DNA of 63,971 nucleotides, counting the filler, from an uncultured Methanosarcinales archaeon (lineage in GTDB: Archaea; Nanobdellota; Nanobdellia; Woesearchaeales; UBA12501), in assembly GCA_964397315.1 (NCBI GenBank). It is 7 parts of 4 records of this genome, joined end to end, with 100 filler letters (N's around TTAATTAATTAA, not from the genome) between each part and the next. Parts side by side here need not be neighbours in the genome. Positions count along the whole stretch, not along the records: positions 18,065 to 27,053 come from CAYNHV010000001.1; 6 more parts are not named here. One strand, given 5' to 3'. Position numbers: made by a program. Of this stretch, positions 24,001 through 27,000 are shown piece by piece. The number at the start of each line of letters is the position of its first letter. Position 1 is the stretch's first letter.

Positions 24001-27000
24001 TGTCCTGTCAAGAGGGTTACTCAAATCGCTCTCAAGGCCTGTTGACTGCGGTATCAGGCTGAGGGGGAAGCCTCTTTTCGGCCCCCACAAGACGATAAGG
24101 GGGGTTGTTGTGGGCGTGGCTGCAGCGCTTATAACGTTCCAGGTCCAGAAAAGCATTTACGGCATTGACTTCTTCAGGAGCATAAGCATTGTTGATTACC
24201 ACTCAATGTATATCTCTTACTTTCTCCTGCCCGGCCTCGTTCTCGGCTGCGGCGCTCTGCTGGGTGACATGATTGAGAGCATGTTCAAGAGGCAGTTCAG
24301 CATAAATCCGGGAAAGAGCTGGATACCCTTTGACCAGATTGATTTCATCATAGGGGCTTTGCTTCTTATATCGCTGATATACATCCCCTCATGGAAGGTT
24401 ATTGTGATGCTGCTTGTCCTGACTCCGGCTCTTCACATAGCAACAAACCATCTAGCCTACTATCTTAAGCTGAAGAAAGAAAAGTGGTAGCGCAGTGACA
24501 AAGAATGAGATGTTTGACAGCAGTATGTAGGAGATCTGCTGCTTCCGGGTTCTCTTCTCGTTTTCCATTGCGCATATTGTTCCTGATGCAAGCCCCATTA
24601 TGAATATGAGCGAGGCTGCGAGGGTTACCACTCCGCTGAACTGGGAAAGCACACCCATTATCGCCCCTGCGAGAGGATATATTATTCTTATGTCCTCCAC
24701 TTCCCTCAGGAACCTGAAGTAGACCGCAACTCCTATCAGAACAATGATTCCTAAAGCCGGCTCCTGGATGTACAACAGAAGAAGCATGAGAAGCACGGTC
24801 ATGATGTCCTTGAGAGCCATGAAATACCTCCTGCCATCCTTGAGCTCCTCACTCGCAAGAACAGCCAGGATGAAGCCTCCTGCAAGGCCAAGGTATGCTA
24901 CAATGGACATAATCAGGTAATTCAGGAAGGTCACCATTCTGAATGCCCCCATTGTATCAGAAGGTCAGGCTCAAGGTCCCCCATCTCAGGGATGTCGCAC
25001 GCCCCAAAACAGGTTTCAAGCCATATAACCGGCTCAGCAGATGTTTCCTCTCTTATGCTGTCAGCTATCTCCCCTGCCCTTGGCTTCAGGCCGTCAGGCA
25101 GCTGTATGCAGACGCTTCTGGCCTTGCTTTTCCTTATCTCAGAAACAGCATTCTCAATCTCCAGGTCATAATCTGTTCTTACCATGCTATATCAGGGTTT
25201 GAATCCTTCTCTTCCTTTTGAGTGTGGCTTCCTGCGTAACCGCAGGCTCCGCATATGTAATAGCCCTCATCCCCTCTCTGCACCCAGCTCATGTCTGTTG
25301 AGCCGCATTTCGGGCACTTGTTCACTGAGGTCATTTTTCCGCAGCTGCAGCCTCATTGAGCTCTTTGAGGAACTTGCCAACATCAATGCCATGCGCGGCA
25401 GCTCCCTGCTCAACAGTCTCAAACTGGGCCACATGGCAGCCTATGCAGTGCATGCCGTGCCTGAACATGACTTCCGCAGTCTCAGGATACTTCTCAACAA
25501 CATCTCCTATTGGCATGTCCTTGCTTATCAGCTGCTTTCCTTCTTCTTTGCTCTTGTTTTCCTTGCTTTTTTCTGCCATTTGGAAAAGGTTAGAAAGAGC
25601 ATTTTTAAAGGTTTTGATGGGTGAAGACGCCCCCGCCGGGATTTGAACCCGAGTCTTCGCCTTACTCCCCTTGGTCGAGAGGGCGAAATGATTCTCCGGC
25701 AGGCCATATTATGCGGCATGTGGCCGGACTACACTACGGGGGCAGTGATTATATCAGCTCTTTTTGGTCGTGGGATTTCCGAGCAAAGCGAGGAATATCC
25801 CACTTAGCGTTGCGTCCGAGGGGAGCGTAACCCGCTCCGGTAGCTACACTACGGGGGCAGTGATTATATCAGCTCTTTTCCGCCTTCCTTGTCCTCTTTT
25901 ATGTGGATCACATTCACAGGGCATCCCTGCGCTGCTCTCATGTTACATTCAAGCTCTTCCTCGCTTATGCTTGTCTTTTTTGGGGATGCCTTTCCATCAT
26001 CTTTCATCTCCCAGTTGTCCTCGCAGTTTGCAGCGCATGCTCCGCAGCCAATGCATCCTTCCCTATTCTGTTCTATCTTGTATTCTGCCATTGTTTCACT
26101 TCTTTTCTTTCTTCCACGGGCCCGCAGGGATTTGAACCCCGGACCTTTCGGTCTCTCTTCAGAGTTAAGAGCCGAATGCTCTAGCCAGACTGAGCTACGA
26201 GCCCTTAAAATGCTTGAAACCGGATTTATTTATAAAATTTATTGAAAATGGCTTTGCGCCATTTTCAAGACTAAAAATTTGACCATCTAAGATGCAAATC
26301 CGTTAATACCCCACCTTTAGGGTGTGGTTAGGATTTGCTTTATAAGATAATGGTCAAATTTTTATTATGCGGCTGCCGGGACTTTCGGCAGCTGGCATTC
26401 AACGAATGCCTGGCGTGGGATCCCTTGCAGGATCTGTGGGCCTTTCTGCTTCGAACCCGGGCACCTGCCTTGGGAGGGCAGTGTCATACCGCTAGACTAC
26501 AGCCGCACAATAGGGTCAGTTTATGGTATGGTTATAAATCTTTTGATGAGAAATGCAGGTGATGCAAGAAAGAAAACACGCCGCGGCCCGGATACAGGAA
26601 CGAGCCTTTTGATTAAAGCCTCGGGAAAACTCAGGCAGCTCCTAGTGCTTGCGTACCGGAGCTCCCTTAGGATATATTTACAGAAACCGTTTTCAACATT
26701 GTTGATTCGGAGGATTCCGAGCGAAGCGAGGATATCCTCCTTAATGGCCGGATCAAGGAAGAAGACCCTTGTCGGGAAAACTCAGGCAGCTCCTAGTGCT
26801 TGCGTACCGGAGCTCCCTAACGCCGCGGCCCGGATTCGAACCGGGATATCCCGAAGGAAACCGGCTATTTTTGCTGAAAATCTATGATTTTCACCACTCA
26901 AGGCCGGCGCAGTACCAGATTGTGCCACCGCGGCAATGGCAGTTGTGGAAACAGTGGGTTTTATAAAGCTTTTTATGGGGTCAGTATCTCCGAAGGGATT

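Follow-up and report, generated by a model that had tools for sequence, protein, structure and literature searches.

In the window (the whole 63,971-nt stretch of DNA analysed, from an uncultured archaeon of the order Woesearchaeales), an 84-aa ORF on the minus strand (24931-25185; window position equals contig C1 position minus 127800, a conversion that was confirmed) matches the first part of Pfam PF01866 (Diphthamide_syn; model 1-56 of 302, E 6e-11, 42.7 bits where the cut-off is 33.2) and is predicted to encode domain 1 of Dph2 (2-(3-amino-3-carboxypropyl)histidine synthase) as a free-standing protein. This N piece aligns to residues 6-84 of PDB chain 6q2d_A and 7-84 of 6bxm_A, has 24 invariant columns in an alignment of 35 homologues, and contains C59-F-G-A-C63-D64, a motif whose Cys63 is, by alignment, the first [4Fe-4S] ligand. 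An AF2 model (pLDDT 79.8) has an alpha/beta domain matching Dph2 domain 1, and the top Foldseek matches to this model are Dph2 chains (TMq 0.66-0.70). The N piece was matched by 1231 protein clusters of 46-147 aa, the best 120 of these 1231 being 78-98 aa. In a second sample from the same study, contigs span 24639-25669 with zero differences from the window, so the N-piece stop codon and both ORF ends are not a one-off assembly error.

Directly downstream on the same strand (24452-24952), overlapping the 3′ end of the N piece, is an ORF for a 166-aa membrane protein with sub-threshold Pfam matches only, while a 51-aa putative zinc ribbon with four cysteines (25179-25334, minus strand; Zn-ribbon Pfam matches all below cut-off) overlaps the N-piece start by 7 nt. 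A profile of the 166-aa family matched a same-strand downstream ORF at 20 of 30 N-piece loci (L033-L062), but found no match at C-piece loci (those with the remainder of the Dph2 gene) or at loci where the two pieces are adjacent; many relatives with dispersed pieces have a gene of this family behind the N piece, in the same orientation. No homologue of the zinc ribbon was found at the other 29 N-piece loci, and the neighbourhood is specific to this genome. A Dph3-like electron donor, for which the zinc ribbon and an upstream DUF1858 gene had been candidates, was dropped because homologues are absent at those 29 loci. In three genomes from other orders a 93-101-aa membrane protein sits between the N and C pieces; the 166-aa family profile fails to match it, and membership of that family was rejected.

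Searched in six frames, the whole genome (G000; 1,471,575 bases, 61 contigs, 93% complete) yielded exactly two, complementary PF01866 matches, both on the minus strand: C1:152725-152901 (model 1-60), which is the 84-aa ORF, and C17:24068-24670 (model 61-270, E 5.4e-39, 133.5 bits, cut-off 33.2), held by a 214-aa ORF (C17:24020-24664; L001:1453-2097). This C piece aligns to 6bxm_A 93-293 and was assigned domains 2 and 3 by sequence alignment, domain 1 being assigned to the N piece by model and alignment. The break falls in a short linker, after a conserved QWGH motif and before the ‘FIEA’ strand. Two ligands, Cys66 (GQVLGC) and Cys196 (TACPR), are found on the C piece and, together with Cys63 of the N piece, are invariant in the 35-row alignments. 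Zhang et al. (2010) reportedly found that each cluster ligand of Dph2 comes from a different domain. The ligands given for PhDph2 in PMC11048331 are Cys-59 (beside Asp-60), Cys-163 and Cys-287; their counterparts in the alignments are Cys63 of the N piece, next to Asp64, and Cys66 and Cys196 of the C piece, respectively. The C piece ends ~30 model positions short, in agreement with the preliminary description, and lacks ~12 residues that most relatives have.

On sequence grounds, the N piece is read as the detached domain 1 of an archaeal Dph2 and the C piece as the rest, so that Dph2 is encoded by two genes with a clean break between them and with the Fe-S ligands divided between the chains. 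The preliminary description had already proposed a Dph2 in two genes (84 aa and 214 aa); this claim is borne out, its coordinates for the two pieces were reproduced, and the alignments now assign one cysteine to the N piece and two to the C piece. The 84-aa gene is better annotated as a Dph2 subunit than as a fragment.

The diphthamide pathway is complete at the level of predicted genes. Dph5 (diphthine synthase, the next pathway enzyme; 9235-9978, C1:137035-137778, minus strand, coordinates of the match) was identified with NCBIfam TIGR00522 (301.7 bits, cut-off 114.3), Dph6 (C1:126311-126979) by a profile score above the curated cut-off, and EF-2 is present with the target histidine (HEDAIH600RG; the EF-2 motif appears as HxDxxHRG in PMC6143161). 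Dph2 is a [4Fe-4S]/SAM enzyme that places a 3-amino-3-carboxypropyl group onto the diphthamide histidine of EF-2. Here, the N and C chains would associate non-covalently to rebuild a Dph2-like protomer, with the cluster site spanning their interface, and the two-chain product would modify His600 of EF-2, with Dph5 and Dph6 acting afterwards. Complex prediction gave the N-C pair a score of 0.47 (runs 0.47, 0.47 and 0.53; tool verdict ‘weak support’) against 0.01 for the best of three controls, at a mark that 116 of 157 solved complexes passed, as did 2 of 215 mismatched pairs, passes at or below 0.60 comprising just 18 of the 157 solved complexes yet both of the passing mismatches. The runs had at least 93% of contacts in common and a partner pLDDT of at least 72, and the pass may stem from likeness to solved whole Dph2. 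From the two-chain enzyme proposed in the preliminary description, the two genes stand, and the prediction lends weak support to association of the chains. If correct, a two-chain Dph2 with ligands on separate polypeptides would offer a handy system for studying domain contacts and assembly of a non-canonical radical-SAM site.

A split Dph2 in DPANN archaea, including Woesearchaeota, is already published. Narrowe et al. (2018, Genome Biol Evol, PMC6143161) described split Dph1/2 in DPANN, Dombrowski et al. (2019, PMC6349945) restated it for Parvarchaeota, Pacearchaeota, Woesearchaeota and Altiarchaeota, and a table in Podar et al. (2013, PMC3655853) lists split Dph2 in the Nanoarchaeota member Nst1 (genes Nst 222 and 440). 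The first two concern the same phenomenon in the same group, with separate N- and C-terminal genes; Nst1, also DPANN with a reduced genome, likewise has two widely separated Dph2 genes. The passages on the split in Narrowe et al. and Dombrowski et al. do not give the break point, the division of ligands between chains or the gene arrangement, and in the main text of PMC6143161 the word ‘fission’ is absent and both uses of ‘adjacent’ are unrelated. Solved single-chain homodimers (P. horikoshii, 3LZD; Ca. Methanoperedens nitroreducens, 6BXM; M. smithii, 6Q2D) share the family, ligand cysteines and domain 1 fold, but consist of one ~330-aa chain, whereas in this genome domain 1 is severed from the rest and the C-terminal tail is shorter by ~20-30 residues. 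The eukaryotic Dph1-Dph2 heterodimer is also a two-chain diphthamide synthase, but is made of full-length paralogues with a cluster each (PMC11048331), while here two fragments would form one protomer. Pacearchaeota-like whole-gene Dph2 (328 aa; also in G045 and G098) is the same enzyme in the same class, but is unsplit and lies across a branch supported at 98 from every split form.

Among 121 Woesearchaeales genomes (G000 included), 120 have a PF01866 match and 112 match the N-piece profile, although G037 and G045, among the 112, lack a free-standing N piece, the match being a fragment of 34 aa in one and the N domain of an unsplit gene in the other. The pieces are adjacent in 13 of the 121 genomes, separated by 515 nt in one, and far apart or on different contigs in 87; 18 genomes have one piece only, two a whole gene and one neither piece nor whole gene. 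The example genomes named for the adjacent and dispersed arrangements in the preliminary description were recovered at the same contig positions. In adjacent pairs the stop of one gene and the start of the next overlap by 4-10 nt or are 0-3 nt apart, with a Shine-Dalgarno-like GGAGG within the 3′ end of the N gene; to judge from these features, the pairs are working bicistrons rather than broken genes. G098 carries a whole-gene Dph2 alongside an intact split pair and G045 also has a whole gene; three forms of Dph2 (whole, adjacent-split and dispersed-split) are found within one order. Elsewhere in the order C pieces start at about model position 54-93, and elsewhere in the class at about 48-128, mostly near 60-64; a class-level search listed C pieces beginning near the same position (~60) in 120 genomes outside the order. 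The split had been presented as a trait of this order, which these 120 genomes contradict.

Gene trees were quick searches with SH-aLRT support only. In the C tree, which takes in 28 of the 87 dispersed order genomes, split forms make up one clade (98), with whole forms across the branch (98). Monophyly of the split forms of the class, apart from whole forms, fits one old fission, which would have given rise to all sampled split forms. The adjacent forms, a group defined by trait and tested after the tree had been seen, are also one clade in the C tree (97; 90 with G006) and have inserts in common, and G121, from another order, nests within them (99). The N tree agrees in this grouping and in the two sub-groups, with the adjacent clade at 83. 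The present genome carries the common dispersed form, and the adjacent two-gene form would be a separate gene lineage, patchy across the order. Taken together, an N piece that is Dph2 domain 1, a C17 gene for domains 2-3, associating chains, one old fission and a separate adjacent lineage very probably form the best explanation.

On an RNA-polymerase species tree, adjacent-type genomes are scattered (adjacency needs 13 changes for 14 rows) and are often sister to dispersed ones (G049+G009, 98; G077+G102, 99; G083+G090, 98). Grouping of the adjacent genomes as one clade on this tree was rejected (IQ-TREE constrained fast search plus AU test; delta lnL 575, p-AU 3.3e-6). EF-2 was set aside as a species marker, as its tree nests other-order genomes inside the order; that tree likewise scatters adjacent genomes (13 changes for 13 rows). 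One adjacent gene lineage in scattered hosts points to transfer of a unit or to sorting of an old lineage, not to a relic stage, and we lean slightly towards transfer of the N-C pair as a unit, with replacement of resident genes. More tentatively, the tight N-C bicistron might move horizontally as a unit, having repeatedly displaced the scattered form in Woesearchaeales and reached at least one other-order genome, whole-gene Dph2 having likewise entered G045 and G098 and gene order having been shaped by transferability. Adjacency would then be a sign of recent arrival, not of an early step in fission, with G098 caught carrying resident and incoming forms. The conflict between gene and species trees and the three forms of Dph2 offer a manageable setting in which to ask if split genes undergo re-packaging or replacement by transfer. 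As far as our literature searches show, this aspect of split Dph2 is new; it rests on the quick trees.

The preliminary description instead saw a caught-in-the-act series, in which the gene broke in place within the order, adjacent pairs are surviving early stages and scattering followed lineage by lineage. Monophyly of split forms fits its single fission, adjacent pairs do occur in 13 of the 121 genomes (and in one more a 160-aa ORF separates the pieces), and in G049 and G121 the N and C pieces share one frame with a single TAG or TAA between them, resembling a fresh nonsense-plus-restart split. Placement of the adjacent lineage outside all dispersed forms was also not rejected (AU test, p 0.09). 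However, the split is class-wide and hence older than the order, the adjacent forms share inserts and make up one gene lineage whose hosts are scattered on the RNA-polymerase tree, often as sisters of dispersed-type genomes, and at least nine origins of dispersed forms would be needed, yet these forms cluster on both the N and C trees. A single fission is retained from this account, while an adjacent-first series is unsupported by the trees and appears unlikely.

Hidden paralogy, whereby the order ancestor had both adjacent and dispersed pairs and lineages kept either, would make transfer unnecessary. The N and C trees each show two lineages, a position of the adjacent one outside all dispersed forms not being rejected (p-AU 0.09), and G098 shows that whole and split Dph2 can coexist. 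This scenario is nonetheless improbable, as all 13 adjacent genomes have just one N and one C copy, long coexistence plus many independent losses would be required, and G121 belongs to another order but sits inside the adjacent clade. Transfer of the adjacent pair as a unit remains the preferred reading.

Very little speaks for the pieces being decaying remnants of a dying pathway, or for each chain acting alone. Diphthamide loss is known from other archaea, as mentioned in PMC6143161, and no PF01866 match was found in the order genome G096 (rated 100% complete) or in four class genomes (rated 95% complete). The 18 one-piece genomes (9 C only and 9 N only with piece-specific profiles) could also be counted in favour; they may reflect MAG incompleteness. 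Some (G043, G059, G064, G076) are rated 96-100% complete. Against decay, both pieces have intact frames and invariant catalytic motifs in more than 100 genomes, and Dph5, Dph6 and the EF-2 histidine are retained; a lone C piece would be missing one of the three cluster ligands. Dph2 is unfit as a single-copy completeness marker in these archaea, a use against which Narrowe et al. warn (PMC6143161).

A frameshift or chimeric contig halving one gene, conceivable in an assembly of 61 contigs, is a negligible prospect, given that what follows the N piece is a conserved membrane-protein gene unrelated to Dph2, not Dph2 sequence in another frame, the C piece has its own start and other neighbours, contigs from the other sample are identical, and 259 kb to 1.04 Mb separate the pieces in the single-contig genomes G025, G085 and G097.

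Elsewhere in the window, an ARAGORN ‘tRNA-Stop (tta)’ call at 26117-26204 is probably an intron artefact, since Rfam identifies a normal tRNA whose anticodon loop has an insert of 15 nt.

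Dph2 is encoded by two genes in the source genome (G000; 1.47 Mb in 61 contigs, 93% complete). Searched in all six frames with Pfam Diphthamide_syn (PF01866), the entire assembly yielded only two matches. One, over model positions 1-60, is the 84-aa ORF at window 24931-25185 (-) (N piece; 42.7 bits over model positions 1-56 of 302, cut-off 33.2), and the other, over positions 61-270 (E 5.4e-39), lies on contig C17 within a 214-aa ORF (C piece) that has its own ATG and unrelated neighbours. Contigs from a second sample, taken in the same study, match window 24639-25669 with zero differences. 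Genes for diphthine synthase (Dph5; C1:137035-137778, window 9235-9978) and diphthine-ammonia ligase (Dph6; C1:126311-126979) were located, as was EF-2 on contig C8, with the diphthamide loop HEDAIH600RG (motif HxDxxHRG, as quoted in PMC6143161). The preliminary description was correct in its coordinates, gene lengths and pathway genes, and the two-gene encoding that it reported is real and well described.

This is an instance of a published DPANN peculiarity. Split Dph2 is listed for Nanoarchaeota Nst1 by Podar et al. 2013 (PMC3655853), the list of Dombrowski et al. 2019 names Parvarchaeota, Pacearchaeota, Woesearchaeota and Altiarchaeota (PMC6349945), and Narrowe et al., who report the split for DPANN archaea, advise against Dph2 as a marker gene, in a main text without the word ‘fission’ or discussion of gene arrangement (PMC6143161). 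Small proteins in public databases are already called ‘diphthamide synthesis protein [Candidatus Woesearchaeota archaeon]’, and the N piece is matched by 1231 protein clusters of 46-147 aa. Added here are the break point, the distribution of cluster ligands and a conflict between gene and species trees.

The cut falls in an eight-residue linker between the QWGH motif and the ‘FIEA’ strand, since the N and C pieces align with residues 7-84 and 93-293, respectively, of 6bxm_A (Ca. Methanoperedens Dph2); the N piece also aligns with residues 6-84 of 6q2d_A (M. smithii Dph2). The ligands of PhDph2 are Cys-59 (beside Asp-60), Cys-163 and Cys-287 (PMC11048331). Their counterparts, which the preliminary description had left unassigned, are C63 (followed by D64) in the N piece and C66 (GQVLGC) and C196 (TACPR) in the C piece, all invariant in a 35-row alignment of each piece. 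The small chain thus carries one ligand and the large chain the other two. According to what Zhang and colleagues reportedly found in 2010, the three Dph2 ligands come from three different domains. The C piece ends ~30 model positions short of PF01866 and lacks ~12 residues found in most relatives after the first strand-helix unit.

Modelled alone with AlphaFold2, the N piece forms an alpha/beta domain (pLDDT 79.8), for which Foldseek ranks Dph2 chains highest (TMq 0.66-0.70). The two chains are predicted to bind each other: with both alignments and a 4Fe-4S cluster as input, the complex scored 0.47 (runs 0.47, 0.47 and 0.53; best control 0.01; ‘weak support’ in the tool's own verdict), with at least 93% contact agreement between runs and partner pLDDT of at least 72. 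The mark is attained by 116/157 solved complexes and 2/215 mismatched pairs, of which only 18 of the former and both of the latter do so at scores of 0.60 or below. The pass may reflect likeness to solved whole Dph2, as such structures exist.

Among 121 genomes of the order Woesearchaeales (G000 included; G112, flagged unpublished, is counted in these tallies only), searches with PF01866 and piece-specific profiles combined placed the pieces on different contigs in 80 and on a single contig, separated by 63 kb to 1.04 Mb, in six (both dispersed type). They are adjacent on the same strand, N then C, in 13; in G040 they are separated by 515 nt containing a 160-aa ORF. The eight example places of the preliminary description were all recovered. 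A C piece alone was found in nine genomes and an N piece alone in another nine; these cases fit incomplete assemblies, without proving it, and the C pieces of G070 and G088 are truncated by contig ends. G045 has a whole gene alone, while G098 has a Pacearchaeota-like 328-aa whole Dph2 plus intact, separated N and C pieces (C1:995276-996160, C1:803719-803949 and C1:741126-741671). The G098 whole form has 67-87% identity to 328-aa Dph2 proteins labelled Pacearchaeota or Nanoarchaeota by their sources, and 562 such relatives were confirmed in genome contigs. G096, rated 100% complete, has no match.

The adjacent pairs are working operons. Thirteen of them, 12 from the order and that of G121, have an intact N gene, whereas the N piece of G094 is split over two frames. 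Ten of the 13 N genes end in ‘...GW*’ and the other three a few residues later, at least six have a GGAGG- or GAGG-like stretch within the last codons, and the C gene starts with a 4-10 nt overlap or 0-3 nt gap (a computed 127-nt overlap in G077 results from a start called too far upstream). Both genes share a frame in G049 and G121, with one TAG or TAA between them. Other radical-SAM translation-modification genes flank several adjacent pairs: a Taw1/TYW1-like gene (Radical_SAM + Wyosine_form) at five loci (L092, L093, L097, L103, L104), with overlapping ends in four, and an Elp3-like gene at two (L094, L100).

Across the class Nanobdellia, PF01866 matches were found in 146/151 genomes, and whole genes (303-346 aa) are a minority. 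In most families of the class there are C pieces whose match begins near model position 60, so the split is older and wider than the order, which counts against a fission within it. One old fission is plausible. PF01866 is absent from G096 and, elsewhere in the class, from four genomes of family f137 (G173, G196, G208, G257), these being rated 95-100% complete; diphthamide synthesis may have been lost here, as described for other archaea.

A C-piece tree (74 rows, all fetched pieces; quick search, SH-aLRT support) covered every adjacent form, 28 of the 87 order genomes with dispersed pieces and 13 whole forms, with a Bathyarchaeota sequence as outgroup. A branch with support 98 separates whole from all split forms, and the adjacent forms fall into a single clade (97; 90 with G006) that takes in G040 and G121, the latter of another order, and whose members have inserts in common. 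The N-piece tree (60 rows, 90 columns, weak support; G000 duplicate and broken G094 copy omitted) groups 12 adjacent pieces with G040 (83) and 29/30 dispersed pieces (81). These are the same two sub-groups as in the C tree, so both pieces of the adjacent type have had a common history.

Concatenated RpoB'', RpoB', RpoA' and RpoA'' (61 genomes, 2338 columns; no match in G058 and G064, G150 and G217 left out) served as species proxy. Here the order is a clade (support 100) with only G040 outside, on a long branch, and adjacency is scattered, requiring 13 changes for 14 rows, at least nine forced by starred branches. Several adjacent genomes are starred sisters of dispersed-type ones (G049+G009, 98; G077+G102, 99; G083+G090, 98). 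Constraining the 13 adjacent order genomes to one clade cost 575 log-likelihood units (p-AU 3.3e-6; fast searches, group named after the tree was seen). Read as a time series, the ‘caught-in-the-act series’ of the preliminary description is not supported: the adjacent and the dispersed forms represent two gene lineages, mosaic over the species tree. In the simplest account, the N-C pair would have moved in single events, several times replacing resident dispersed genes, as whole-gene Dph2 would have done in G045 and G098. The chief alternative explanation of the mosaic is old paralogy followed by differential loss. A tree of the C data with all 28 dispersed order rows as one clade and the adjacent lineage outside is not rejected (delta lnL 29.6, p-AU 0.09), so these data are compatible with both primitive and secondary adjacency.

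EF-2 serves poorly as a species marker in these genomes: in contrast to the RNA-polymerase tree, its tree (L188-L250) places G163, G170 and G220, of other orders, inside the order. The class has a further split/fused polymorphism in RNA polymerase subunit B, which is split in G000 (C6:16727-23840 (-); B'' 496-aa and B' 618-aa frames), while the corresponding open frame is 1089-1117 aa in G020, G118, G163 and G232.

Around the N piece, a gene for a 166-aa membrane protein of no named family lies 3' (window 24452-24952 (-)). A 153-181-aa membrane protein gene occupies this position, on the same strand, at 20/30 N-piece loci (L033-L062) from different families, frequently overlapping the N-piece stop; several are truncated by contig ends, and a profile search found none in adjacent-type or C-piece loci. 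A 93-101-aa conserved membrane protein, unrelated to the 166-aa family and without a Pfam match, is encoded between the N and C pieces in G181, G232 and G188 of other orders (L078:1126-1407, L079:1107-1412, L084:2285-2578). Upstream of the G000 N piece, a zinc-ribbon protein (51 aa, four cysteines) and a protein with a DUF1858 match of 82.9 bits are encoded head-to-tail (window 25179-25579 (-)), with 4-7-nt overlaps, an arrangement not found at the other 29 N-piece loci. Window ~25630-25700 resembles a tRNA 3' half, called by no tool. The ‘tRNA-Stop (tta)’ called by ARAGORN at 26117-26204 (-) is most likely an artefact; this tRNA gene and that at 26821-26934 (-) carry anticodon-loop inserts of 15 and 33 nt, respectively, which are probably introns.
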